64,000 nt of DNA from Brevundimonas sp. GTDB taxonomy: Bacteria > Pseudomonadota > Alphaproteobacteria > Caulobacterales > Caulobacteraceae. The position numbers and the translations under genes are program-made. Under the pieces are notes generated by a model. The model did no database searches. It was not told where the DNA came from and saw only the letters and a list, made by a program, of their open reading frames with translations. Within the stretch, counting starts at the first letter, position 1; the number at the start of each line of letters is the position of its first letter. This document shows positions 1-39,718 of the stretch, piece after piece. The stretch is taken from positions 22,334-86,333 of the forward strand of contig NZ_DASPMM010000009.1 of NCBI RefSeq assembly GCF_035627055.1. The letters run 5' to 3'.

Positions 1-1
1 C

Positions 2-862
2 GCCGGCGTGCGTCAGCGCGTCGTCGTCACCCCGCCCGCGAAGGACGGCGGGGTCCGCCCGGCCATGATCTACGCCGCCGCAGAGGCCGGTCTCGACGCC
101 CTGTGGCTGATCGGCGGCGCCCAGGCCATCGCGGCCCTGACCTTCGGCGCGACCTTCGACGACGGTGCGATCGAGCCCGTCGACAAGCTGTTCGGCCCCG
201 GCAACGCCTGGGTGGCCGAGGCCAAGAAACAGGCCGCCGCCCTCCCTCGCGGCCCCGCCGTCGACATGCCCGCCGGCCCCTCCGAACTGCTGGTCATCGC
301 CGACCGCGACGCCGACCCGAAGATCGCCGCCGCCGACCTGCTCAGCCAGGCGGAACACGACGCCGACGCCCAAGTCGTTCTCGTCTCCGAAAGCCGCGCC
401 AACATCGCCGCCATCCTCGCCGAGGTGGAGCGCCAGCTGGGGACCCTGCCCCGCGCCGACATCGCCCGCGCCTCCCTCGCCGGAGGCTGCGCCATCCGCG
501 TCCGCGACATCGCCGAAGCCTGCGAGATCGCCAACCTCTACGCCCCCGAACACCTGGCCCTGCAGACGGTCGACGCCGAAGCGCTCGTTGACCGCATCAC
601 CGCCGCCGGCGCGGTCTTCGTCGGCCCCTACGCCGCCGAGACCCTGGGCGACTACGCCGCCGGCCCCAGCCACGTCCTCCCCACCGACGGCGCCGCCCGC
701 ACCTTCGGCGGCATCACCACGGCCAGCTTCATGACCTCGATGTCAGTGCAGAGCGTCACCGAGGCCGGCGCCCGCACCCTCGCCCCCGTCGCCGCCCACC
801 TCGCCCGCCTCGAAGGCCTCGAGGCCCACGCCCGCGCCGCCGACCTGAGGCGCGGCGGATGA
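2..862 (+). CDS. hisD: Histidinol dehydrogenase (5' end outside window)
   Basis: KLFGPGNAWVAEAK, DMPAGPSE, DLLSQAEHD, PEHL, LGDYAAGPSHVLPT, GLEAHA motifs; frame open to the window edge. Confidence 0.97.
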   Translation, partial: AGVRQRVVVTPPAKDGGVRPAMIYAAAEAGLDALWLIGGAQAIAALTFGATFDDGAIEPVDKLFGPGNAWVAEAKKQAAALPRGPAVDMPAGPSELLVIADRDADPKIAAADLLSQAEHDADAQVVLVSESRANIAAILAEVERQLGTLPRADIARASLAGGCAIRVRDIAEACEIANLYAPEHLALQTVDAEALVDRITAAGAVFVGPYAAETLGDYAAGPSHVLPTDGAARTFGGITTASFMTSMSVQSVTEAGARTLAPVAAHLARLEGLEAHARAADLRRGG

Positions 863-2298
863 TCACCAACCTCCCCGCCCCCTTCGCCCCGCTGGTCGCC
901 GGCGGCGACGGCCTCGACCGCTACCCGACCGAGCCCCGCGCCCTCGCCGCCCGCATGGCCGAGGTCTACGGCGTGCCGGCTGAAAACGTCCTGCCAGTCC
1001 GCGGGCTGACTCACGGGCTGGAGCTCGTCTTCCGCCTTGCCGCCCGCGATGGCCTCGGCGTCCAGGCGCCCGACGCCGAACCTTATCGTTCCCTCGCCGC
1101 GCTCTACGCGAGGACCGACGCCCGCACTGAGCCGGGCGCTGTCATCGTGCGCGCCCTCGGCTCGCCCGAGGCCTTTGCGGAGATGGCCGCCCGCCTCGCC
1201 CCGACCCTGCTGGTCATCGACGAGGGCTTGGCCGAGTTCGCCGACGCCCCTTCCGCCGCTGCGCTCCTCGGCGAGCACCCGAACCTCGTCGTCCTGCGCA
1301 GCCTGTCGCTCGCCTATGGCCTCGCCGGCGCCCGCGTCGGCGCGGCTCTGGGGCAGCCCGAAACCCTCGCCCGGCTGGCCGCCGTCCTCGAGCCCTACGC
1401 CCTGCCCGAGGTCTCCGTCCGTCTGGCCCTGCAGGCGCTCGACCCCTCGCGGATGATGGAAACGCGCCAGCGGCTCGCCCTCGTCCGCTTCGAACGGGAG
1501 CGGCTGACGAAGGCGCTCTCCCGCGCCATCCCGATCGAACCCGGCTTCGGCCCGGTCATCATGGCCCGGCCCTCGGACCCCGAGGCCGTGCGGACCGATC
1601 TCGCGCGCTTCGGCGTGGCGGCCGACCTGTCGGGCGACCGCCTGCGCCTACCCGTCTCCGCCCGCGCCGAGGTCAACGACCGCCTGCTCGCCGCCCTCAA
1701 TCTCGCCCCGGCCGCGTCCCGCCCCCACCGCACCGGCCAGTCGATCCGCGACACGAAGGAGACCCGCCTCGTCTGCGCCGTTGATCTCGACGCCCCCGGC
1801 CCGGTCGCCATCGCTACCGGCGTCGGCTTCTTCGATCACATGCTGGAGCAGGTCGCGGCCCACGGCGGCTTCTCCCTCCGCCTGTCGTGCGAGGGCGACC
1901 TGCACACCGACCCGCACCACTCCATCGAGGACTCGGCCATCGCCCTCGGCCAGGCCCTGAAACAGGCGCTCGGCGAACGTCGCGGCATCGCCCGCTACGG
2001 CTTCGTCCTGCCCATGGACGAGGCCGAGGCGGCCGTCTCCATCGACCTGTCCGGCCGCCCCTTCCCCGTGTTCCAGGGGACCTTCGCCACTCCCTTCATC
2101 GGCGATTACCGCACCGACCTGACCGCCCACGTGTTCCGCTCGCTCGCCGAACACCTCGGCGCCGCCATCCACGTCTCGGTCACCGGCGACGACGACCACC
2201 ACAAGACCGAGGCCGTCTACAAGGCCTTCGGCCGCGCCCTGCGCCAGGCCATCCGCATCGAGGGCGACGCCGTGCCGAGCACAAAGGGGGTGCTGTGA
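859..2298 (+). CDS. hisB: Fusion: degenerate HisC-like aminotransferase domain (N-terminal) + imidazoleglycerol-phosphate dehydratase HisB (C-terminal)
   Basis: C-terminal RDTKET, TGVGFFDHML, GDLHTDPHHSIED, MDEA, DDDHHKTEAVYKAFGRALRQA = IGPD; N-terminal RYP, VIDE, LRSLSLAYGLAGARVG = HisC fold with K replaced by L. Confidence 0.9.
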   Translation: MITNLPAPFAPLVAGGDGLDRYPTEPRALAARMAEVYGVPAENVLPVRGLTHGLELVFRLAARDGLGVQAPDAEPYRSLAALYARTDARTEPGAVIVRALGSPEAFAEMAARLAPTLLVIDEGLAEFADAPSAAALLGEHPNLVVLRSLSLAYGLAGARVGAALGQPETLARLAAVLEPYALPEVSVRLALQALDPSRMMETRQRLALVRFERERLTKALSRAIPIEPGFGPVIMARPSDPEAVRTDLARFGVAADLSGDRLRLPVSARAEVNDRLLAALNLAPAASRPHRTGQSIRDTKETRLVCAVDLDAPGPVAIATGVGFFDHMLEQVAAHGGFSLRLSCEGDLHTDPHHSIEDSAIALGQALKQALGERRGIARYGFVLPMDEAEAAVSIDLSGRPFPVFQGTFATPFIGDYRTDLTAHVFRSLAEHLGAAIHVSVTGDDDHHKTEAVYKAFGRALRQAIRIEGDAVPSTKGVL

Positions 2299-2897
2299 GC
2301 GCGGTTACCGTCGTCTCCTGTGGCGCCGGCAACGTCGCGTCGGTGCAGTTCGCGCTCGAGCGGCTGGGCGCCACCGTCCGCCTGACCGCGGATCCGGCCG
2401 AGGTGGCCGCCGCCGACCGCCTGATCCTCCCGGGCGTCGGCGCCGCCGGCTACGCCATGGCGCGCCTGTCCGAACTCGGCCTCGTCGAGCCGATCCGCGC
2501 CTTTGCCCGCCCCCTGCTCGGCGTCTGTCTCGGCCAGCAACTGCTGTTCGAAGCCAGCGAGGAAGGCGGCGGCGTGGACATGCTCGGCCTCATTCCCGGC
2601 GCTGTGCGTCGCCTGGAGCCGGACGCGGATCGCCCGGTCCCGCACATGGGCTGGTCGAAGCTGGCCATCACCCGCCCGGACCCGCTGCTCGAAGGCCTCA
2701 ACGACGGCGCCTATGCCTTTTTCGTGCACAGCTACGTCTGCCCCGACGGCGAGGCGACCCTGGCCAGCGCCGACTATGGCGTCCCGATCCCGGCCGTCGT
2801 CCGCAGCGCCAATCGCTGGGGCTGCCAGTTTCACCCGGAGCGGTCCGCCGCCGCCGGAGCCCGCATCCTCGGCAACTTCCTGGACCTCAGCGCATGA
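2295..2897 (+). CDS. hisH: Imidazole glycerol phosphate synthase glutamine amidotransferase subunit
   Basis: GTG start overlapping upstream TGA; GAGNVASV, ILPGVG, GVCLGQQ, VPHMGW, FVHSY, QFHPERS. Confidence 0.96.
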   Translation: MSAVTVVSCGAGNVASVQFALERLGATVRLTADPAEVAAADRLILPGVGAAGYAMARLSELGLVEPIRAFARPLLGVCLGQQLLFEASEEGGGVDMLGLIPGAVRRLEPDADRPVPHMGWSKLAITRPDPLLEGLNDGAYAFFVHSYVCPDGEATLASADYGVPIPAVVRSANRWGCQFHPERSAAAGARILGNFLDLSA

Positions 2898-3628
2898 TCG
2901 TCTACCCCGCCATCGACCTGCGCGGCGGCGTCTGCGTGCGCCTGATGCACGGCCGCTTCGACGCCGTGACCCGCTATGACGACGACCCCGCCGCCCGCCT
3001 CGCCGCCTTCCGCGCCGCCGGGGCCGACTGGGCCCACATCGTCGATCTCGACGGGGCCGAGGCGGGCCGCGCCATGCAGCACGCCCTGATCGGCGAGCTC
3101 ACCGCGGCCATCGACATCCGCATTCAGTCCGGCGGCGGCGTCCGCTCCGCCGACGACGTGCAGCGCCTCCTCGACGCCGGCGTCAGCCGGGTGGTCATCG
3201 GCTCCCTCGCCGTCTCCGATCCCGGGGCGGTCTCCGGCTGGCTGGACCGGTTCGGCCCCGACCGCATCACCCTCGCCATCGACGTCAAGGCCGACGGCGA
3301 CCGCTACATCCCGGCGCTCAAGGGCTGGACCGAGGCCGCCGACATCGACCTTTGGGCCGCCCTCGACCGCTATCCGCCCGGCGTGGCGAAACACTTGCTG
3401 GTCACCGACGTCGGCCGCGACGGGGCTCTGACCGGCCCCAACCTCGATCTGCTGGCCGAGATCCACCGGCGTCGTCCAGACCTGTGGCTGCAGGCCTCCG
3501 GCGGCGTCGCCGGCGTCTCCGACCTGACCGGCGCCCGCTCCGTCGGCGCTTCCGGCGCCATCGTCGGCCGCGCCCTCTACGAAGGCCGCTTCAAACTGCA
3601 ACAGGCCCTGGAAGCCGCCCGCGCATGA
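2894..3628 (+). CDS. hisA: ProFAR isomerase
   Basis: IVYPAIDLRGG, HIVDLDGA, QSGGGVRS, TDVGRDGALTGPN, ASGGV. Confidence 0.97.
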   Translation: MIVYPAIDLRGGVCVRLMHGRFDAVTRYDDDPAARLAAFRAAGADWAHIVDLDGAEAGRAMQHALIGELTAAIDIRIQSGGGVRSADDVQRLLDAGVSRVVIGSLAVSDPGAVSGWLDRFGPDRITLAIDVKADGDRYIPALKGWTEAADIDLWAALDRYPPGVAKHLLVTDVGRDGALTGPNLDLLAEIHRRRPDLWLQASGGVAGVSDLTGARSVGASGAIVGRALYEGRFKLQQALEAARA

Positions 3629-4392
3629 CCGCCCGCCGCATCATGCCCTGCCTCGACGTCAAGGACGGCCGCGTCGTCAAGGGCGTGCGGTTCGAGGGCC
3701 ACGTCGACATGGGCGACGCCGCCGACCTCGCCGCCCGCTACCGCGACCAGGGCGCTGACGAACTGGTCTTCTACGACATCACCGCCAGCCCGGAGGGCCG
3801 CACCCTCGACTACGGCTGGGTCCGGGATATCGCCCGCCTGCTCGACATCCCGTTCAGCGTCGCCGGCGGCATCCGCTCGGTCGAACAGGCCGGCCGCTGC
3901 CTCGACCACGGCGCCGACAAGGTCTCGATCAACTCCCCCGCGCTGGAGCGCCCGGAGCTGATCTCCGACCTCGCCGCCCGCTTCGGCGCCCAGTGCGTCG
4001 TCGTCGGCGTCGACTCGAAGCGCGCGGCCGACGACTGGTTCGTCCACCAGTACACCGGCGACCCCACGGCCAGCCGCGGCGCCGGCCGTCGCACCCTCGA
4101 CTGGATCGTCGAGGCGCAGGACCGCGGGGCGGGCGAAATCGTCCTCAACTGCATGGACGAAGACGGCGTCCGCGCCGGCTACGATATCGCCCAGCTCTCC
4201 GCCGCCCGCGCCCGCCTGACCGTTCCGCTGGTCGCCTCCGGTGGGGCCGGCGCGGCCTCGCACTTCGTCGACGTCTTCCAGCAGGCCGGCGTCTCCGGCG
4301 CCCTCGCCGCCAGCGTCTTCCACACCGGTTCGCTGACCATCCCGGACCTGAAGGCGTTCCTCATCAACGGCGGCGTGGAGATACGGCCATGA
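3625..4392 (+). CDS. hisF: Imidazole glycerol phosphate synthase cyclase subunit
   Basis: ATGA overlap with hisA; RIMPCLDVKDGRVVKGV, DELVFYDITAS, NCMDEDG, ASGGAG, ALAASVFH. Confidence 0.97.
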   Translation: MTARRIMPCLDVKDGRVVKGVRFEGHVDMGDAADLAARYRDQGADELVFYDITASPEGRTLDYGWVRDIARLLDIPFSVAGGIRSVEQAGRCLDHGADKVSINSPALERPELISDLAARFGAQCVVVGVDSKRAADDWFVHQYTGDPTASRGAGRRTLDWIVEAQDRGAGEIVLNCMDEDGVRAGYDIAQLSAARARLTVPLVASGGAGAASHFVDVFQQAGVSGALAASVFHTGSLTIPDLKAFLINGGVEIRP

Positions 4393-5027
4393 TCGATCCC
4401 TCCACCCTCGACTTCGCCAAGGGCGACGGCCTGATCCCCGTCGTCGTCCAGGACGCCGCCACCCTCCAAGTGCTGACCCTGGCCTACATGGACCGCGCCG
4501 CCCTCGACGAGACGATCGCCTCCGGCGAGGCGACCTTCTTCTCCCGCTCGCGCGGCGGCCGCTGGCGCAAGGGCGAGACCTCGGGCGACCGGCTGCATGT
4601 CGTCTCCCTCACCCCCGACTGCGACGCCGACGCCCTCGTGCTCAAGGTCCGCCCCGTCGGGAACGCCTGCCACTTGAACCGGATCAGCTGCTTCGGCGAC
4701 GAGGACGCCCCCGGCCTCGGCCGCCTCGCCCGGCTGGAGCAGACCATCGCCGCCCGCGCCGCGGCCGACCCGACCGAAAGCTGGACCGCCCGCCTGCTCG
4801 CCGAGGGCCCCAAACGCGCCGCCCAGAAGGTTGGCGAGGAGGGCGTCGAGACCGCGCTCGCCGGCGCGGCCGGACCGGATTCGGAACTCGCCTCCGAGGC
4901 CGCGGATTTGATCTACCATCTGCTGGTGCTGCTGCGCGCCCGTCACATGGTGTTTCAGGACGTCCTCGATGTCTTGGCGCAACGCGTGGAAGCGGCCAGA
5001 CCAAATCCCGGTCAAGCTGGGACCTGA
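4389..5027 (+). CDS. hisIE: Bifunctional phosphoribosyl-AMP cyclohydrolase / phosphoribosyl-ATP pyrophosphatase
   Basis: FSRSR..WRKGETSG, DCDADAL, ACH..SCF, then SWTARL..KVGEEGVE, EAADLIYHLLV. Confidence 0.96.
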   Translation: MIDPSTLDFAKGDGLIPVVVQDAATLQVLTLAYMDRAALDETIASGEATFFSRSRGGRWRKGETSGDRLHVVSLTPDCDADALVLKVRPVGNACHLNRISCFGDEDAPGLGRLARLEQTIAARAAADPTESWTARLLAEGPKRAAQKVGEEGVETALAGAAGPDSELASEAADLIYHLLVLLRARHMVFQDVLDVLAQRVEAARPNPGQAGT

Positions 5028-5042
5028 ACCTGAGGAGACGGC

Positions 5043-6503
5043 ATGGCGGCCCTGGTGCTGTTCGGCGGCGGCGGCGATCTGGCGATGCGCATGCTGCTGC
5101 CCTCGCTCTACTTCCTCGAGCACGACGGCCTGCTGCCCGACGGCCTCAAGATCATCGGCGCCGCCCGCTCCGACGAGAGCCGCGACGACTACGTCGCCAA
5201 GGTCCGCCAGTCCGTCGAAGCCAAGGCGAAGGCCGACGACGCTTGGGCCGGCGACGCCTGGGCCCGGATGGAGGCCCGGCTCGACTACCTCGCCGTCGAT
5301 GCGACCAGCGCCGAAAGCCTCAAGCCGCTCAAGGACAAGGTCGGCGACGGCGCCTGCACCTCCTTCCTCGCCGTCTCGCCCTCGCTCTACGCCCGCATCG
5401 TCACCGCGATGCGCGCCGCCGGCCTGGCCGAGGCCGAGGACCGCGTCGTTCTGGAAAAGCCGGTCGGCCGCGACCTCGAGACCTTCCGCCAGATCGACGA
5501 CGCCGTCGCCGACGCCTTCTCCGAGCACCAGGTCTTCCGCATCGACCACTACCTCGGCAAGGAGACGGTCCAGAACCTGATCGCCCTGCGTTTCGGCAAC
5601 ACCATCTTCGAGCCGCTGTGGAACAACCTGTCGATCGACCACGTCCAGATCACCGTCGGCGAGACCGTCGGGGTCGGCGACCGCTGGCCGTATTACGACG
5701 AGTACGGCGCCCTGCGGGACATGCTGCAGAACCACATGCTGCAGCTGCTCTGCCTCGTGGCCATGGAGCCGCCGTCCGACCTCGATCCCGACTCCGTCCG
5801 CAACGAGAAGGTCAAGGTCCTGCGCTCGCTGCGACCCATCACCCATGAAGAGGCCGAGCGCGTCACGGTGCGCGGCCAGTACGTCGCCGGAACCGTGGAG
5901 GGCCAACCCGTCCCCGGCTACGACGAGGAGCGCGGCGCCGAGTCCGACACCGAGACCTTCGTCGCCGTCCGCGCCGACATCGACAACTGGCGCTGGGCCG
6001 GCGTGCCCTTCTTCATGCGCACCGGCAAACGCCTGCCCGAGAAACGCACCGAGATCGTCATCCAGTTCAAGTCGGTGCCGCACTCGATCTTCGGCCAGGG
6101 TGAGCGCGGTTCCATCGAGGCCAATCGCCTGGTGATCGAACTCCAGCCCGAGGAGGACATTTCCCTCTCGGTGATGAACAAGCAGCCCGGCCTCGACCAG
6201 CGCATGCAGCTCCAGCCCATCCGCATGAGCCTGTCCTGGGGCCAGAACGACCGGGAGGCCCGGCCGCCGCGCCGCCGCATCGCCTACGAGCGGCTGCTGC
6301 TCGACGCTCTGCACGGCGACTCCACCCTGTTCGTGCGCCGCGACGAGGCCGAGCAGGCGTGGAAATGGGTCGACGAGGTCTCCGAGGCCTGGGAGGGCGC
6401 GGCCTTCAAACCGCACGACTACGCCGCCGGAACCTGGGGCCCCGAGGCCGCCGACCTGCTGCTGTCCCGCACCGGCCGCGAATGGAATTCCGGCGATGCC
6501 TGA
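5043..6503 (+). CDS. zwf: Glucose-6-phosphate 1-dehydrogenase
   Basis: LFGGGGDLA, LEKPVGRD, FRIDHYLGKETVQN, RDMLQNH, RWAGVPFFMRTGK, AYERLL. Confidence 0.98.
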   Translation: MAALVLFGGGGDLAMRMLLPSLYFLEHDGLLPDGLKIIGAARSDESRDDYVAKVRQSVEAKAKADDAWAGDAWARMEARLDYLAVDATSAESLKPLKDKVGDGACTSFLAVSPSLYARIVTAMRAAGLAEAEDRVVLEKPVGRDLETFRQIDDAVADAFSEHQVFRIDHYLGKETVQNLIALRFGNTIFEPLWNNLSIDHVQITVGETVGVGDRWPYYDEYGALRDMLQNHMLQLLCLVAMEPPSDLDPDSVRNEKVKVLRSLRPITHEEAERVTVRGQYVAGTVEGQPVPGYDEERGAESDTETFVAVRADIDNWRWAGVPFFMRTGKRLPEKRTEIVIQFKSVPHSIFGQGERGSIEANRLVIELQPEEDISLSVMNKQPGLDQRMQLQPIRMSLSWGQNDREARPPRRRIAYERLLLDALHGDSTLFVRRDEAEQAWKWVDEVSEAWEGAAFKPHDYAAGTWGPEAADLLLSRTGREWNSGDA

Positions 6504-7203
6504 GATCGAGACCTTTCCGAACGCCGAGGCCTGGGCCGCCGCCTGCGCGCTCCGCCTGGCCGACACCCTGTCCGCCGCCCTCGCCGAGACCGGCCAGGCC
6601 GTGTTCGCCGGCGCCGGCGGCTCCACCCCGTCGCCGATCTACGCCCGTCTCTCAGAGGCGCCGCTCGACTGGTCGAAGGTCGTCGTCACCCTGGTGGACG
6701 AGCGTTACGTCCCGGAATCCTCATCCGACTCCAACGCCGCCCTGATCAAGCGCACCCTGCTGACCGGCCCCGCGGCGGCCGCCCGCTTCATCCCCCTGTA
6801 CAGCCCGCAGGTGACCATCGACCGCGCCGCCGCCGTCGCCGCCCACGCCCTTGCGGCCGAGGGCGGGCGCATCGACGCAGCCCTTCTCGGCATGGGCGAG
6901 GATGGCCATATCTGCTCCATGTTCCCCGGAAATCCCGCCCTCAAGTCGCTGCTCAGCCCGGCGCTGCGCCCCACCGTGTTCGGCGTCGCCGCCGGCCGCG
7001 ACGGCATGCCGCCCTCGCTCGAGCGGCTGTCCATCAACATCCCCTACCTGACCGGCGCCCGCCGCGTCGTCCTCGCCCTGACCGGGGCGAAGAAGCGCGA
7101 GGTCTTCGAGCAGGAGGCCGCCGGCGATCCGAACACCCATCCGATCGCCGCCCTGATCGCCCACGGCGCCCCGCTCGAAGTGCTCTGGACGGAGGCCGCC
7201 TGA
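6496..7203 (+). CDS. pgl: 6-phosphogluconolactonase
   Basis: GGSTP, VDERYVP..SDSN, LGMGEDGHICSMFP; lies between zwf and edd. Confidence 0.95.
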   Translation: MPEIETFPNAEAWAAACALRLADTLSAALAETGQAVFAGAGGSTPSPIYARLSEAPLDWSKVVVTLVDERYVPESSSDSNAALIKRTLLTGPAAAARFIPLYSPQVTIDRAAAVAAHALAAEGGRIDAALLGMGEDGHICSMFPGNPALKSLLSPALRPTVFGVAAGRDGMPPSLERLSINIPYLTGARRVVLALTGAKKREVFEQEAAGDPNTHPIAALIAHGAPLEVLWTEAA

Positions 7204-9092
7204 TGCCGACCCTGAACCCCGTCGTCGCAGAGGTCACCGCCCGCATCGTCGAGCGCTCCCGCGCCACCCGTTCCGACTACCTGCGCCGCATGGACGCCGC
7301 CGCCGCCTCGGGCGTGGCCCGCGCCAAGCTCAGCTGCGCCAACTGGGCCCACGCCTTCGCCGGCCAGCCGGTGCGCGACAAGCTGGTCGCCATGGGCGGC
7401 CAGCAGCCCAACGTCGGCATCGTCACCGCCTACAACGACATGCTCTCGGCCCATACGCCGTTCGAGCGCTTCCCCCCGATCATCCGCGAGGCGGTGCGCG
7501 AGGCGGGCGCGACGGCGCAGGTCGCCGGCGGCACCCCCGCCATGTGCGACGGCGTCACCCAGGGCCGGCCCGGCATGGAGCTGTCGCTGTTCAGCCGCGA
7601 CGTCATCGCCTTGTCCACCGGCGTGGCCCTGACCCACGACGCCTTCGACTCCGTCATCTGTCTCGGCGTCTGCGACAAGATCGTGCCCGGCCTGTTCATG
7701 GGCTCGCTGGCCTTCGGCCACCTGCCCGTCGTCTTCGCCCCCGCCGGCCCCATGCCCAGCGGCATTCCCAACGCCGAGAAGGCCCGCATCCGCGGCCTCT
7801 ACGCCCAGAACAAGGTCGACCGGAAGACGCTGCTCGAAAGCGAGATCGGCTCCTACCACTCGCCCGGCACCTGCACCTTCTACGGCACCGCCAACTCCAA
7901 CCAGATGATGATGGAGTTGGCCGGGCTGCACATGCCCTCGACCGCCTTCGTGCACCCGGAGACCGGCCTGCGCGACGCCCTCACCGCCGCCGCCGCGAAA
8001 CAGGCCGTCACCCTCGCCCGCGAGGGCCGGGGCCGCATGGCCGACGTCGTCGACGAGAAGTCCGTGGTCAACATGATCGTCGCCCTGCTGGCCACCGGCG
8101 GATCGACCAACCACGCCATCCACCTCGTGGCCATGGCCCGAGCGGCCGGCGTGCTGATCGACTGGACCGACATGGACCAGCTGTCGTCGGTCACCCCCCT
8201 GCTCGCCCGGGTCTATCCCAACGGCTCGGCCGATGTGAACGCCTTCCAGGCCGCCGGCGGCGTCGCCTTCGTGGCCCGCGAGCTGGCCGGGCACGGCCAC
8301 ATCCACACCGACGTCCAGACCATCATGGGCCCCGGCATCCACCATTATTTCCAGGAGCCGTCGCTGGTCGACGGCGAGCTGGTCTGGCGCGACGGCGTCA
8401 GCGAAAGTCTCGACACCGACATCCTGCGTCCCGCCTCCGATCCGTTCGACCGCGAGGGCGGGCTGCGCCTGGTCCAGGGCGATCTCGGCCGCGCCGTCAT
8501 CAAGGTGTCGGCGGTCAAGCCGGAGAACCGCATCGTCGAGGCGCCCGCCGCCGTCTTCGAGACCCAGGAGGACGCCCTGCAGGCCTTCAAGGACGGCAGG
8601 CTCGACCGCGACGTCGTCGTGGTCCTCCGCTTCCAGGGCCCGAAGGCCAACGGCATGCCCGAACTGCACAGCCTCTCCCCGGCCCTCGGGGTCCTGCTCG
8701 ACAAGGGCTTCAAGGTGGCCTTCGTCACCGACGGCCGCATGTCCGGCGCCTCGGGCAAGACGCCCGCCGCCATCCACGTCTCGCCCGAGGCCTTGGCCGG
8801 CGGCATGCTGGCCCGCGTCCGCGACGGCGACATCATCCGGCTCGATCCGGACGCCGGCGTCCTGACCACGGTCGGCGTCGACCTGTCGAGCCGCGTCCCC
8901 GCCACCCGCTCGGCCGAACACGCCGGCGGCTCGGCCTGGGGCTACGGCCGCGAGCTGTTCAGCGCCTTCCGCCACGTCGTCTCGACGGCCGAGGAGGGCG
9001 CCTCGGTCTGTTTCGCCCTGCCCGTCGGCGGCTCGACATGGAATGACAGCCAGCCCGATCCGAACCTCAACGACCGCGCGGTCGACGCATGA
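7203..9092 (+). CDS. edd: Phosphogluconate dehydratase
   Basis: [58 protein letters not shown]. Confidence 0.98.
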
Positions 9093-9144
9093 CGGCCCCT
9101 CAAGCAGAGAGCCGCCGCGCGGCGAACGACAGGGCAGACATCCG

Positions 9145-10122
9145 ATGACCATCGCCTGGGACAAGACGCTGCTCGTGGGCGACGTCGGCGGCACCAACGC
9201 CCGCTTCGCCATCGCCCACATGATCGACGGCAAGCCGGTGCTCGAACACCACCAGAGCTTCAAGGGCGCGGACCACCCGACCTTTCTCGGCGGGGTGAAG
9301 GCCTACCTCGACGGCTGCGAGGTCAAGCCGACCTCGGGCGTCATCGCCGTCGCCGGCCCGGTCACCGACGGCGCCATCGACCTGACCAACTCACCCTGGC
9401 GGGTCTCGGAGCAGGAACTGGGCGCGCTGGGCCTCGACCCGGTGCGCCTGATCAACGATTTCGAGGCCCTCGCCTGGGGTGCGCCGGTCGTGCCGCGGGA
9501 CGAACTCGCCTCGCTCGGCGGGCCCGAAGAGGGCGACCCGGCCTCCGCCATCGCCGTTCTCGGCCCCGGCACCGGCTTCGGCGTCTCGGCCCTGATCCGC
9601 GATTTCCACGGCCGCGAGATGGCCATGCCGTCCGAGGGCGGCCACGCCTGTTTCGCGCCCGGCGATCCGATCGAGGACGAGATCCTGCGGATCCTGCGCC
9701 GCCGCTACGACCGCGTCTCAATCGAGCGACTGATCTGCGGCCCCGGCCTGCTCAACATGCACCGCGCCCTGGCCGAGATCGACGGCCGCGAAACCCACAT
9801 CGACGATCCGGCCCAGATCACGGACGAGGCCCTGGCCGATCCGCGCAGCGCCTGTGGGGCCACCCTGGCGCGCTTCTGCGCCATTCTCGGCGCCGTCGCC
9901 GGCGACATCGCCCTGACCACCGGCGCGCGCGGCGGCGTCTATATCGCCGGCGGCATCGCGCCGCGCATCCTGCCCTTCCTGCAGGCCAGCCCCTTCCGCG
10001 AGCGCTTCGAGCGCAAGGGCCGGTTCACCGACTACATGGCCGCCATCCCGACCCACGTCATCCTGCACAAGCACGCGGCCCTGCTCGGCGCGGCGCGGGT
10101 GGCCTTCGCCGAAGCCGGCTAA
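9145..10122 (+). CDS. glk: Glucokinase
   Basis: LVGDVGGTNARF, LINDFEA, GPGTGFG, SEGGH, ERLICGPGL, GGVYIAGGI. Confidence 0.97.
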   Translation: MTIAWDKTLLVGDVGGTNARFAIAHMIDGKPVLEHHQSFKGADHPTFLGGVKAYLDGCEVKPTSGVIAVAGPVTDGAIDLTNSPWRVSEQELGALGLDPVRLINDFEALAWGAPVVPRDELASLGGPEEGDPASAIAVLGPGTGFGVSALIRDFHGREMAMPSEGGHACFAPGDPIEDEILRILRRRYDRVSIERLICGPGLLNMHRALAEIDGRETHIDDPAQITDEALADPRSACGATLARFCAILGAVAGDIALTTGARGGVYIAGGIAPRILPFLQASPFRERFERKGRFTDYMAAIPTHVILHKHAALLGAARVAFAEAG

Positions 10123-17693: not shown

Positions 17694-18049
17694 TCCTCGT
17701 CTCCTTCGGGGGTTGCAGTCGCCGGCGCGGGGCCGGCCTCGATCTCGATGTGTGGGGCCGGGTCGGCGATGGTCGCGGCCGCCCTCAGCCGCCAGTCGAT
17801 GTCGCGGAACGTGCGCTGACCGGGGATCGGCCGCGGCAGGCCGGTGCTCAGGTTCTCCTCGATCACCGCCCCCGACGGTTCGCTCCACGCCCGCACGGAG
17901 ACCGAGCCGACCTGCCGCCAGCGGACCTGGTCCGCATGGGCCGTGATCGACAGCTCGATGTCCGGCGCCGGCGCGATCTCGGAGGCGGGCGGGGGCGCGC
18001 TCTGCGGCGGCGCACCGAGCAGCAAAAGTGACAGGAAGGTGGCGGGCAT
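17690..18049 (-). CDS. Secreted hypothetical protein
   Basis: Short hydrophobic N-terminus, Pro-rich linker, beta-rich domain; stop overlaps next start. Confidence 0.72.
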   Translation of the reverse strand: MPATFLSLLLLGAPPQSAPPPASEIAPAPDIELSITAHADQVRWRQVGSVSVRAWSEPSGAVIEENLSTGLPRPIPGQRTFRDIDWRLRAAATIADPAPHIEIEAGPAPATATPEGDEE

Positions 18050-18058
18050 CGGGTCGAA

Positions 18059-18083
18059 AACCCTCTGCCCTTCGTCCGGTTCC
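18059..18083 (-). promoter_or_regulatory. sigma-EcfG/sigmaT-like promoter for the 18049-16805 operon
   Basis: Minus strand GGAAC-N16-GGTT ending 9 bp before the ATG at 18049. Confidence 0.6.
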
Positions 18084-18170
18084 GTGCACGGTTCACAGGG
18101 TTTGAAGCCGGCTCCCTTGACGCGCCCGATCCGTCGGCCGAGTCAGGTTGAGGAACTCCGGAGCCCCGCC

Positions 18171-18842
18171 ATGCGCCACGACCGCCTCGCCGTCCTCACC
18201 GCCCTCGAAGCCCAGGGCGTGGCCCCCGTCTTCTATCACCCGGACCCCGAGGTCAGCCTGAACGTCATCCGCGCCTGCGCCCGCGGCGGCGCCAGGGCCA
18301 TCGAATTCACCAACCGCGGCGACTTCGCGGTGGACCTGTTCGGCGATCTCTCCCGCGAGCTCCAGCGCACCGACCCGGACGTCATCCTCGGCATCGGCTC
18401 GGTGGTCGACGCCGGCACGGCGGCCCTCTACCTCAACCGCGGCGCCCGCTTCGTGGTCAGCCCCTGCCTCGTCCCCGAGGTCGCCCGCGTCTGCAACCGG
18501 CGCATGACCGCCTACTTCCCGGGCTGCGGCTCGGTCACCGAGATCGGCCAGGCCCACGAGCTGGGCTGCGACATCGTCAAGCTGTTCCCCGGCGCCAGCG
18601 TCGGCGGGGCCGACTTCGTCAAGGCCGTGCTCGGCCCCATGCCGTGGACGAAGATCATGCCCACCGGCGGCGTCGACCCCGACGAGGCCTCCATCGCCAA
18701 ATGGTTCGGCTCCGGCATCGTCGCCGCCGGCATGGGCTCGAAACTGGTCACCGATGCGGCGGTGAAGGCCGGCGACTGGGCCGCCATCGAGGCGAACGTG
18801 CGCAAGACGGTGGACGCGATCGCAGCGTTCCGGGGCAGGTGA
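18171..18842 (+). CDS. eda: KDPG/KHG aldolase
   Basis: IEFTNRG, GIGSV, FVVSP, PGCGSVTE, VKLFPG, MPTGGV. Confidence 0.92.
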   Translation: MRHDRLAVLTALEAQGVAPVFYHPDPEVSLNVIRACARGGARAIEFTNRGDFAVDLFGDLSRELQRTDPDVILGIGSVVDAGTAALYLNRGARFVVSPCLVPEVARVCNRRMTAYFPGCGSVTEIGQAHELGCDIVKLFPGASVGGADFVKAVLGPMPWTKIMPTGGVDPDEASIAKWFGSGIVAAGMGSKLVTDAAVKAGDWAAIEANVRKTVDAIAAFRGR

Positions 18843-35686: not shown

Positions 35687-36346
35687 CTACCCCGCCAGCT
35701 CCGGCCGCCGCCGCTTCCAGTCCAGCGGCACCCCGATGCGCCGTTCGATCCGGCCGTCCCACTCGGGCCGCAGCCCGTGGTCCAGCAGCCGGCTGACGAT
35801 GATATGGCCCACGGCGACCGCCGCCTCTGGGGTGTCCTCGCAGGACCCGTAGTTCAGGTACAGGCCCCGTCCCTCGACCGCTCCTTCCGTGTCCTGCCAG
35901 TGGTAGAAGGCATAGCCGTGCGCCGGCTGCCCTTCGCTTCGGGCCGCCTCGATCTCGTCCCATATCTCCGCCGCCCCGCAGGTCCCGCAGCAGCTGAAAT
36001 TCTGGCGCGAGATGACGCCCTCCGCCTCCAGGGCGGCGAAGGCGGCGTCGACCCGGTCGCAATCGGTCTGGTCCGGCCAGTGCGCCTGCGCCGCCGCATG
36101 GGCGGCCAGCGCCGCGTCGGCCAGCACTTCGGCCTCGGCGCGCAACAGGTCGGGATCGCCCTCGTCCTGCAGCATCTCGACGGCGAATTGGATCACGTCC
36201 TCCCGCGGCGCGAACCCCGCGGCGACGTCGTTCTCCACCTGACGGCGCAGGTCCTCCATCAGGTGGGGACTGCGGTCGTTCACGGCGGTCGCCGGGGCCG
36301 GCGCCGCTGAACCCCCGCCTCCGAACAAGCGTCGCAACCAGTCCAT
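35687..36346 (-). CDS. DUF6891-like hypothetical protein
   Basis: TDCDRVDAAFAALEAEGVISRQNFSCCGTCG, YAFYHWQD, GLYLNYGS, GLRPEWDG. Confidence 0.75.
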   Translation of the reverse strand: MDWLRRLFGGGGSAAPAPATAVNDRSPHLMEDLRRQVENDVAAGFAPREDVIQFAVEMLQDEGDPDLLRAEAEVLADAALAAHAAAQAHWPDQTDCDRVDAAFAALEAEGVISRQNFSCCGTCGAAEIWDEIEAARSEGQPAHGYAFYHWQDTEGAVEGRGLYLNYGSCEDTPEAAVAVGHIIVSRLLDHGLRPEWDGRIERRIGVPLDWKRRRPELAG

Positions 36347-36512
36347 CGACCACTCCCCTGAAGGCCCGTTCCACGGCCGAGTCTGCACAGGACGCATGGA
36401 TTGAAAAGCGTTCCTGCCGCAACCGCCACCGAGGGCAGGGCAGAGAGGCTGCCCGCTGCGAGAGGGCGGCGGCCGCGTCGACTCCAGCGGACTGATCCGT
36501 CCGCCGCCGGCG

Positions 36513-36688
36513 GGTTCATCACCAAGCCCACAAAGGAGGCGCGAAGGACACGAAGCGAGCCGGACAGGCCTCGCCTTCGCGGGCCCTTGCCCGCCTTCAA
36601 TCAAAGGCGTCTCCCTGACGGGAGCCGCGGGCCCACCGCCCCCTTCGTGGCCTTCGTGCCTCCTCCGTCGTGTCCTTCGTGACGAACC
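36513..36688. repeat. Palindromic element, family C (CACGAAGG / CCTTCGTG arms)
   Basis: GGTTCATCAC..CACAAAGG..GCGAAGGACACGAAG left arm; CTTCGTGGCCTTCGTG..CCTTCGTGACGAACC right arm. Confidence 0.72.
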
Positions 36689-36862
36689 TCCGCTCCCCGC
36701 CCCCTGACGCTGTGCTGGCATTCCGCGAATCCATAGTCGGGTTCAGCCGAAAACCCCCCGCCTTTCCAGCGACATCCCCTTTTCCCGAACCGATCTTCCC
36801 GCCACAGGAGCCGGGCGGCGCACAATTCGTCCCGACCGATGCAGACGAGGACGCCCCCGCCG

Positions 36863-38514: not shown

Positions 38515-38617
38515 CCGGGCCGGGGGCGGGCCCCGCTCCCGCCCCTGTGACCGGCCTGACCTTGGCTTCGCGGCTCCCCGCCACTAGGTTCCGCCGCAAG
38601 CCTGAAGGAGACGCCCC

Positions 38618-39718
38618 ATGACCGACGCGACCCAAACCCCCGCCGACCGGCTGGACACGGAGAACCCGCTCGGCGTGGACGGCTTCGAGTTCGTCGAGTT
38701 CACCGGCCCCGAGCCCGAAGCCATGGCCGCCCGCCTCGAACTGATGGGCTTCACCCGCACCCACGTGAACCCGGCCACCGGCGCCGTGCGCCTGAAGCAG
38801 GGCGACATCACCATCCTCGTCGACCTGTCGCCCAGGGGCCAGGCCGAGGAGTTCGCCCGCGAACACGGCCCCTCCGCCAACGGCATGGCCTTCCGCGTGT
38901 CCGACGCCAAGGCCGCCTTCGACGGCGCCGTCGCCCGCGGCGCCCGCCCCGCCGAAAACGCCGACGGCGGCGCGCTTGGGAACGGCTATCCCTATGTCCT
39001 GCAGGGCATCGGCGGCTCGCTGCTCTACCTCGTCGACCAGTACGGCGAGCGCGGCTCCCTGTACGACGGCTGGGACGAGATCGAGGGCTGGGAAGAGGCC
39101 GAGCGCAAGAATTCCGTCGGCCTCTACTGCCTCGACCACCTGACCCACAACGTGCGCCGCGGCCAGATGCGCACCTGGTCGGGCTTCTACGGCGACGTCT
39201 TCGCCTTCGAGGAGCAGAAGTATTTCGACATCAAGGGCAAGGCGACCGGCCTCTTCTCGCAAGCCATGATCGCCCCCGACCGCGCCATCCGCATCCCCCT
39301 GAACGAAAGCCAGGACGAGAACAGCCAGATCGAGGAATTCCTCCGCCGCTACAACGGCGAGGGCATCCAGCACATCGCCCTGGCCACCGACGACATCTTC
39401 GAAACGGTCGAGGAGTTGAAGCGCCGCGGCATCCCCTTCCAGGACACCATCGAGACCTATTTCGAACTGATCGACAAACGCCTCCCCGGCCACGGCGAGG
39501 ACGTCGAGCGCATGCGGAAGAACCGCATCCTCATCGACGGCTCCGACGAGGAGGGCCTGCTGCTGCAGATCTTCACCCAGGACACCTTCGGCCCGATCTT
39601 CTTCGAGATCATCCAGCGCAAGGGCAACCAGGCGTTCGGCGAGGGCAATTTCCAGGCCCTGTTCGACTCCATCGAACTGGACCAGATCCGGCGCGGCGTC
39701 ATCAAGGTCGATGCCTAG
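38618..39718 (+). CDS. hppD: 4-hydroxyphenylpyruvate dioxygenase
   Basis: NPLGVDGFEFVEF, LDHLTHNV, RIPLNES, QIEEFL..YNGEGIQHIAL, LLQIFT, GPIFFEIIQRKGNQAFGEGNF. Confidence 0.98.
   Translation: MTDATQTPADRLDTENPLGVDGFEFVEFTGPEPEAMAARLELMGFTRTHVNPATGAVRLKQGDITILVDLSPRGQAEEFAREHGPSANGMAFRVSDAKAAFDGAVARGARPAENADGGALGNGYPYVLQGIGGSLLYLVDQYGERGSLYDGWDEIEGWEEAERKNSVGLYCLDHLTHNVRRGQMRTWSGFYGDVFAFEEQKYFDIKGKATGLFSQAMIAPDRAIRIPLNESQDENSQIEEFLRRYNGEGIQHIALATDDIFETVEELKRRGIPFQDTIETYFELIDKRLPGHGEDVERMRKNRILIDGSDEEGLLLQIFTQDTFGPIFFEIIQRKGNQAFGEGNFQALFDSIELDQIRRGVIKVDA

Follow-up and report, generated by a model that had tools for sequence, protein, structure and literature searches.

The his operon at the 5' end of the 64-kb window analysed here (the whole stretch of 64,000 nucleotides from Brevundimonas sp., contig NZ_DASPMM010000009.1) contains a fusion gene, hisC*-hisB, whose product joins an intact imidazoleglycerol-phosphate dehydratase (IGPD, the activity of HisB) to an N-terminal domain derived from the aminotransferase HisC. 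The lysine that forms the Schiff base with pyridoxal phosphate (PLP) in HisC is a leucine in this N-domain, which, judged from its sequence, cannot be a normal PLP aminotransferase, and the domain is maintained by purifying selection across a bacterial family. We consider it fairly probable that the N-domain is the dead remnant of an E. coli-type HisC whose activity has been replaced, and that it has been kept through a structural dependence of the IGPD on it. A search of sequencing runs traced the window DNA to a soil metagenome.

A lysine-less HisC domain on an intact IGPD

As the initial annotation had claimed, a single 479-aa open reading frame fills the hisC-hisB slot of the operon, and its C-terminal half is a complete IGPD. 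The Pfam family IGPD (PF00475) matches residues 320-461 over positions 1-144 of its 144 (192 bits, cutoff 27, E 7e-57), and the C-terminal half exceeds the cutoff of the NCBIfam HisB equivalog NF002111 (237.6 against 231 bits). Both metal motifs, DPHHSIED (351-358) and DDHHKTEA (445-452), follow the pattern D-x-H-H-x-x-E; in an alignment of 149 sequences the metal ligands H327, H353, H354 and E357 are invariant, and H424, H447, H448 and E451 are at least 90% conserved. An AlphaFold2 model built on this alignment (pLDDT 90.9, pTM 0.86) was compared with known structures by Foldseek, and the C-domain matched the IGPD structures 6fwh, 8qax and 4gqu with target-normalised TM-scores of 0.86-0.91. 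The highest-scoring NCBIfam match of the fusion is NF003937, the bifunctional HisB, at 261 bits (below its cutoff of 443) and only over model positions 164-355. Because this match begins at position 164, the fusion lacks a phosphatase domain, and Pfam found no HAD/HisN domain in the 479-aa protein, in agreement with the initial annotation.

The N-domain retains recognizable but partial similarity to HisC. Pfam Aminotran_1_2 covers residues 113-229 (partial, 57 bits), and the hisC equivalog TIGR01141 matches the N-terminal half in two fragments with 97.3 bits, below its cutoff of 276.55. In a phmmer search of the PDB the top match was E. coli HisC (E 9e-21), with Sinorhizobium 4wbt scoring far lower; residues 18-66 and 114-231 aligned with 51-100 and 177-294 of the E. 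coli enzyme. With Foldseek, the best matches of the modelled N-domain were again E. coli HisC structures (1gey, 1gew and 1gex; E ~1e-17, target-normalised TM-score ~0.7). The N-domain is thus predicted to keep the fold-type I aminotransferase fold, and the pTM of the model hints at a fixed arrangement of the two domains.

Leu151 stands at the position of the Schiff-base Lys214 of E. coli HisC, since LRSLSLAYGLAG of the window protein aligns with LRTLSKAFALAG of the E. coli enzyme; the codons concerned read ctg cgc agc ctg tcg CTC gcc tat ggc (1294-1320). The other losses named in the initial annotation were also recovered. In the alignment with intact HisCs, the PNNPTG loop is deleted and a shorter LGSPE stands in its place, the stretch preceding the loop being shortened as well; the DEAY motif has become DEGL, and the equivalent of Tyr187, leucine in the window protein, is variable across the family. 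Moreover, the N-terminal arm is gone, the first ~35 residues of lysine-bearing HisCs having no counterpart in the window domain. In HisC this arm carries the substrate-specificity tyrosine (Tyr21 in C. glutamicum) and much of the dimer interface (PMC3896937). The features required for PLP transamination thus appear to have been lost, as expected for the dead enzyme domain that the initial annotation had proposed.

This loss extends over the whole family of degenerate fusions, a set of 238 proteins from Brevundimonas, Asticcacaulis, Vitreimonas, other Caulobacteraceae and one Sphingomonadaceae metagenome-assembled genome (MAG). Their former lysine column holds Leu in 132 proteins, Tyr in 42, Phe in 18, Met and Gly in 12 each, Pro and Ile in 5 each, Val in 4, Arg, Trp and Gln in 2 each, and Ser and Cys in 1 each, with Lys in none. 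The closest 120 database proteins listed (at least 74% identity, all fusions of ~478 aa, and named Brevundimonas where named) have L, M, P or I at this position, never K. Neither error nor a private mutation accounts for the loss of the lysine, and close relatives with a lysine, the case singled out in the initial annotation, were absent among the degenerate forms. A relocated catalytic lysine was also ruled out: none of the N-domain columns has Lys in more than 40% of the 238 homologues and some of these proteins have no lysine in the domain at all. In the window protein, the sole lysine of residues 1-290 is K219, which is not conserved.

Selection and conserved residues in the N-domain

Searching 1.8 billion cluster representatives, and searching with a profile, recovered the degenerate architecture down to ~35% identity, the Asticcacaulis fusions being slightly longer (491-500 aa). 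When one genome per GTDB species was scanned, 249 genomes proved to encode a relative. The best 80 are Brevundimonas-like, the closest named species being B. alba DSM 4736 (85% in the N-domain), and since these 80 loci are all of this kind, the wider taxonomy of the degenerate fusion rests on source names. Three records labelled Bordetella sp. (L072), Rhizobium sp. Q54 (L076) and Rhizobium sp. CRIBSB (P0374) carry Brevundimonas-like fusions with 68-77% identity to the window, which probably reflects mis-binning or mislabelling of the assemblies.

The reading frame is intact, with a product of 474-480 aa, in all 75 complete Brevundimonas loci. We calculated pairwise Nei-Gojobori dN/dS for 76 genes and, by the same procedure, for the neighbouring genes (Table 1). 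The median is 0.27 for the N-domain and 0.14 for the IGPD, and dN is about three times higher in the N-domain (0.19 vs 0.066). As the N-domain value resembles those of hisH, hisA and hisD, the dead domain is as constrained as the active enzymes of its own operon. The conserved absence of the lysine and purifying selection, which the initial annotation had raised together, were thus both found in the homologues. Low dN/dS and conservation of the frame also led us to reject an untranslated in-frame remnant as an explanation of the N-terminal part.

The domain could instead be translated and have no function, decaying slowly because its clean removal is unlikely or would disturb translational coupling and IGPD folding. 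The variability of the former active site, with 13 different residues at the lysine position, points this way, as do lineage-specific deletions (one variant of 449 aa lacks the D-E strand) and the threefold excess of dN over the IGPD. However, the dN/dS of the N-domain is much smaller than 1 and matches the values for hisH, hisA and hisD from these genomes, no frameshift or stop occurs in the 75 complete loci, some 13 invariant and 35 near-invariant N-domain columns persist to ~35% identity, and the model folds with high confidence. We therefore regard a functionless relic as improbable.

Which residues are conserved bears on a different explanation. In the 149-sequence alignment, the 13 invariant columns of the N-domain are R48, G49, H52, E55, R59, D121, E122, G157, E178, A190, R198, R205 and R215. 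The PLP N1-binding Asp121 and the adjacent Glu122 are kept in 234 of the 238 degenerate forms (the other four have a gap), and the PLP phosphate site is largely preserved, with Ser148 in 226, Ser150 in 219 and Arg159 in 208 of them. In addition, positions 51, 52, 178 and 197-198 carry residues specific to the lysine-less clade (Table 1). The N-domain could thus be a ligand-binding or partner-docking module that regulates the IGPD or hands over its unstable product, its partner being non-covalently bound PLP or pyridoxamine phosphate (PMP), imidazole-acetol phosphate, histidinol phosphate or the real HisC. This would account for the retention of Ser148, Ser150, Arg159 and Asp121, for the replacement of Asp, Glu/Asp, Pro/Ala and variable residues by Thr/Ser51, His52, Glu178 and Ser197-Arg198, respectively, and for a dN/dS as low as that of active enzymes. 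There are also precedents: HisZ is a catalytically dead paralogue of histidyl-tRNA synthetase that regulates the short form of HisG, and the PLP enzyme MalY exerts its regulatory effect through protein contact.

Several observations nevertheless make such a module unlikely in our estimate. Among the E. coli HisC residues that we take to contact histidinol phosphate, Asp85 is replaced by Thr/Ser, Tyr20 was deleted with its arm, Arg322 has no equivalent and the equivalent of Arg335 is variable (Arg in 161 of 238). Heterodimers with the real HisC are unlikely too, the stand-alone HisC of a sister lineage being only distantly related to the N-domain (38 bits). A more specific proposal is that Thr51, Ser148, Ser150, Arg159 and Asp121 form, together with His52, Glu178 and Ser197-Arg198, a new site for an imidazole-phosphate intermediate or for PLP/PMP. 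Such repurposing seems rather doubtful to us; if true, it would make the IGPD 24-mer an allosterically controlled or substrate-channelling particle, and the domain the second pseudoenzyme regulator in histidine biosynthesis after HisZ.

Intact fusions, stand-alone hisC genes and the origin of the dead domain

Going beyond the initial annotation, our search of cluster representatives revealed HisC-IGPD fusions of an apparently bifunctional type. These full-length proteins of 553-571 aa keep the lysine, PNNPTG, DEAY and the N-terminal arm; one comes from a Robiginitomaculum sp. MAG (PHR61060.1) and another clusters with a partial protein named Sphingomonas. They score 294-319 bits with TIGR01141, and a 528-aa lysine-bearing form scores 282 bits, all above the cutoff, as compared with 88-124 bits for degenerate relatives. 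The intact fusions are presumably bifunctional. Given that these fusions score above the hisC cutoff, a bifunctional ancestor is probable for the window form, whose dead domain is most simply viewed as a relic of such an enzyme. The N-domain of the window protein aligns over its full length with the Robiginitomaculum fusion (103 bits), as compared with 38 bits over only 68 residues against the Vitreimonas stand-alone HisC. Moreover, the Robiginitomaculum operon reads hisR(TrpR-family)-hisG(long form)-hisD-hisCB-hisH-hisA-hisF-hisIE, and the degenerate fusions of Brevundimonas, Asticcacaulis, Vitreimonas and others lie in operons of the same layout. These observations suggest that an E. coli-type HisC was fused to the IGPD while still active; the his operon was possibly acquired horizontally.

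Another intact, lysine-bearing fusion of 556 aa (L089, contig JAYRWY010000005.1) lies in a looser cluster, hisD-hisCB-hisH ... hisA ... hisF ... hisE, with neither hisR nor hisG adjoining. The fusion may be older, or may have arisen more than once.

A separate hisC encoding 364-370 aa overlaps the hisIE stop by 4 nt in three lineages with a degenerate fusion (Table 1). Its products exceed the TIGR01141 cutoff, have the lysine (RTFSKLYGLAA) and are of the alphaproteobacterial type. The intact Robiginitomaculum operon has no separate hisC. An extra hisC beside degenerate fusions and none beside the intact one is the pattern expected if the activity has ceased to come from the fused domain. In Vitreimonas, the stand-alone hisC is followed by a second class I/II aminotransferase gene (NF006488, 582 bits).

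The proposal in the initial annotation that the real aminotransferase is encoded elsewhere is indirectly supported by the hisC genes appended to the operon in three sister lineages, but no such gene was found near the operon of Brevundimonas itself. In Brevundimonas, Asticcacaulis and two further lineages, no extra hisC lies within 6-10 kb of the operon, and Pfam identified neither an aminotransferase nor an inositol monophosphatase (IMPase) among ten candidate open reading frames of the window. A tblastn search of plasmids with HisC matched unrelated taxa only, and the top 120 matches listed for the Vitreimonas HisC include no protein named Brevundimonas; looking up clusters yielded no additional names. 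A second hisC is presumably located elsewhere in the Brevundimonas genome. As for the phosphatase, one lineage with a degenerate fusion has an IMPase-family gene ~5 kb upstream of the operon (L091:1-324, minus strand). This histidinol-phosphatase candidate is only a hint, family membership alone being indecisive.

One could argue that the N-domain is still the aminotransferase of the pathway and works without an internal aldimine. It occupies the hisC slot of an operon near which no second hisC was seen in Brevundimonas, and its Asp121, Ser148, Ser150 and Arg159 could be enough to keep PLP or PMP in place. We give this idea very little credence. Besides forming the aldimine, the lysine is required as the base for the 1,3-proton shift, and aspartate aminotransferases mutated at this residue lose six or more orders of magnitude of activity. 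The domain contains no compensating lysine, the Asn157 loop, Tyr187, the N-terminal arm and the substrate arginines have been lost as well, and in sister lineages the operon has gained a genuine hisC.

The history that we favour, the replacement of an E. coli-type HisC and the structural retention of its remnant, would have started with this HisC as part of a bifunctional HisC-IGPD in the hisR-hisG-hisD-hisCB-hisH-hisA-hisF-hisIE operon. In the Caulobacteraceae lineage, a separate alphaproteobacterial-type hisC would have taken over the aminotransferase activity, its gene being placed directly after hisIE in some lineages and presumably elsewhere in Brevundimonas. The fused HisC would have lost its Schiff-base lysine, the Asn157 loop, Tyr187, the N-terminal arm and substrate-binding residues, and the domain may have been kept since the IGPD structurally depends on an N-terminal module. 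IGPD is a 432-symmetric 24-mer whose outer surface is formed by the N-terminal sheet, and in some species it dissociates into inactive trimers when deprived of Mn (PMC10978614). It is tempting to suggest that the N-domain is a folded module on the outer surface of this particle, serving folding, solubility or assembly in the place taken by the HisN domain in enterobacterial HisB, where the particle accommodates an N-terminal domain; a structural role is the reading that we favour. The histidinol-phosphate phosphatase would also be encoded elsewhere.

Several points weigh against this history. No second hisC was found in the 64-kb window or within 6-10 kb of the operon in 82 loci, tblastn with E. 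coli-type and Vitreimonas-type HisC matching only the fusion. The direction from intact to degenerate forms is drawn from parsimony and from a weak neighbour-joining tree, in which the lysine-less forms separate from the lysine-bearing ones; this tree is poorly resolved and possibly subject to long-branch effects, and is too uncertain a basis for counting lysine losses. HisC dimerization relies heavily on the N-terminal arm (PMC3896937), and since this arm is missing, a version of the structural role in which the N-domain staples dimers is weakened. The conserved Ser148, Ser150, Arg159 and Asp121 and the new near-invariant residues could fit ligand binding equally well. Furthermore, erosion of the N-domain continues lineage by lineage, insertions and deletions giving protein lengths of 449-514 aa. 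The 449-aa variant (P0187 / P0273, WP_409700564.1), a Brevundimonas sp. MAG by name, lacks the D-E strand and His52, so that at least one lineage seems able to do without much of the domain. This variant belongs to a divergent lineage (42% identity to the window N-domain) and is represented by four cluster members of identical length from separate assemblies.

Operon context and comparison with known systems

The operon is of the type hisR-hisGDCBHAFIE, with a HisC of E. coli-type ancestry. The TrpR-family gene upstream of hisG (HisR-like, ~100 aa) was found in L001 (7471-7791) and also in L083-L088, L090 and L091; among the operons examined, L089 is the exception. The window, which opens within hisD, does not extend to this gene. 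In relatives' operons, HisG is the long form with a HisG_C domain, and for this reason the operon needs no HisZ. All junctions from hisD to hisIE in the window are 4-nt overlaps of start and stop codons, ATGA or GTGA (859-862, 2295-2298, 2894-2897, 3625-3628 and 4389-4392). Such overlaps also occur at the his junctions of relatives (L001), and their series suggests translational coupling along the whole his operon. Rfam gave no match in window positions 1-6600, and RNA sequencing runs gave only weak matches to the window.

Table 1. Features of the hisC*-hisB fusion, its operon and related stand-alone hisC genes (window positions unless a locus is named)
Feature	Position	Strand	Median dN/dS	Remarks
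hisD, 3' part	8..862	+	0.24	window begins within hisD; Histidinol_dh at the equivalent operon position in relatives
hisD/fusion junction	859-862			ATGA; hisD TGA stop (860-862) overlaps the fusion-gene ATG
fusion gene hisC*-hisB	859..2298	+		479 aa, ATG start; HisC-derived pseudo-aminotransferase domain plus IGPD
HisC-like fold-type I domain, residues 1-290	859..1728	+	0.27	TIGR01141 97.3 bits
position 51				Thr/Ser in lysine-less clade; Asp in lysine-bearing HisCs
position 52, His52	1012..1014	+		His in 231/238 lysine-less forms; Glu/Asp in lysine-bearing HisCs; G-x-D-E loop beside PLP phosphate
DEGL replacing DEAY	1219..1230	+		gac gag ggc ttg; Asp121 and Glu122 kept, Leu at Tyr187 equivalent
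Leu151	1309..1311	+		CTC; PLP Schiff-base Lys position (E. coli HisC Lys214)
position 178, Glu178	1390..1392	+		Glu in 232/238 lysine-less forms; Pro/Ala in lysine-bearing HisCs
positions 197-198				Ser-Arg in lysine-less clade; variable in lysine-bearing HisCs
complete IGPD, residues 291-479	1729..2295	+	0.14	both D-x-H-H-x-x-E metal motifs
hisH	2295..2897	+	0.30	GTG start; 4-nt overlap with fusion-gene TGA stop (2295-2298); GATase at this place in relatives
hisA	2894..3628	+	0.30	4-nt overlap with hisH
hisF	3625..4392	+	0.17	4-nt overlap with hisA
hisIE	4389..5027	+	0.18	4-nt overlap with hisF; next gene zwf, no hisC
zwf			0.22	
Vitreimonas stand-alone hisC	L085:14102-15196			TIGR01141 304.8 bits
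Caulobacteraceae MAG stand-alone hisC	L087:14192-15292			TIGR01141 288 bits
Pseudomonadota MAG stand-alone hisC	L088:14123-15235			TIGR01141 291 bits

An Entner-Doudoroff cluster lies directly 3' of the his operon (5043-10122), with zwf, then pgl and edd, assigned by synteny with L001, and glucokinase; the KDPG aldolase gene is located farther downstream (17820-18842). The window also encodes a DUF6891 protein (35687-36742, minus strand; 211 bits) and a 4-hydroxyphenylpyruvate dioxygenase (38606-39718, plus strand), and in L001 a homogentisate dioxygenase gene lies near the his and Entner-Doudoroff region.

Histidine biosynthesis is a textbook system for the evolution of gene fusions and operons. 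The Fani group papers (2007 and a 2023 review) and a 2024 survey of the IGPD family describe fusions of hisD, N, B, H, F, I and E and of IGPD with the phosphatase. A hisC-hisB fusion was not described in the literature that we searched, these works included, and we found no paper describing the intact HisC-IGPD fusions. Databases show the two Pfam domains; NCBI names the protein HisB, and JGI often adds aminotransferase and/or histidinol-phosphatase. In metabolic reconstructions of Brevundimonas and Asticcacaulis, these JGI labels would cause two pathway steps to be filled in error, and our results are thus relevant to annotation correction as well as to pathway evolution and pseudoenzymes.

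The hisC-hisB fusion joins two known kinds of element, his gene fusions and pseudoenzyme domains. Its N-domain has the attributes of the latter, as far as can be read from sequence: it is homologous to an enzyme whose essential catalytic residues it has lost, it evolves under purifying selection, and it has persisted over the long term in Brevundimonas, Asticcacaulis, Vitreimonas and others. E. coli HisC (1FG3, 1GEW, 1GEX, 1GEY) is its best match in sequence and structure. Common to both are the large and small domains of fold-type I, the DEAY aspartate, the S-x-S motif and the arginine at the PLP phosphate site, and an operon slot flanked by hisD and hisB, whereas the window domain lacks the Schiff-base lysine, the Asn157 loop, Tyr187 and the N-terminal arm and is fused to an IGPD. 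With the intact HisC-IGPD fusions it shares domain order and linker and, in the case of Robiginitomaculum, also the operon, but only the intact forms keep the lysine, PNNPTG, DEAY and the arm. The fusion is now seen in two forms, one apparently bifunctional and one dead but under selection, with a second hisC recruited into the operon in some lineages. Together these resemble steps in a series that runs from fusion through functional replacement to retention as a pseudoenzyme.

In enterobacteria and other phyla, the bifunctional HisB (HisN-IGPD) likewise carries an accessory N-terminal domain on the IGPD and occupies the hisB slot of a hisGDCBHAFI operon. In that case, however, the N-terminal domain is an active HAD-family phosphatase, whereas that of the window protein appears to be a dead aminotransferase fold. 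HisZ offers a further parallel as a pseudoenzyme retained in histidine biosynthesis as the partner of an active enzyme; it forms a subunit of its own and its allosteric role has been demonstrated, whereas the N-domain described here is covalently fused to the IGPD.

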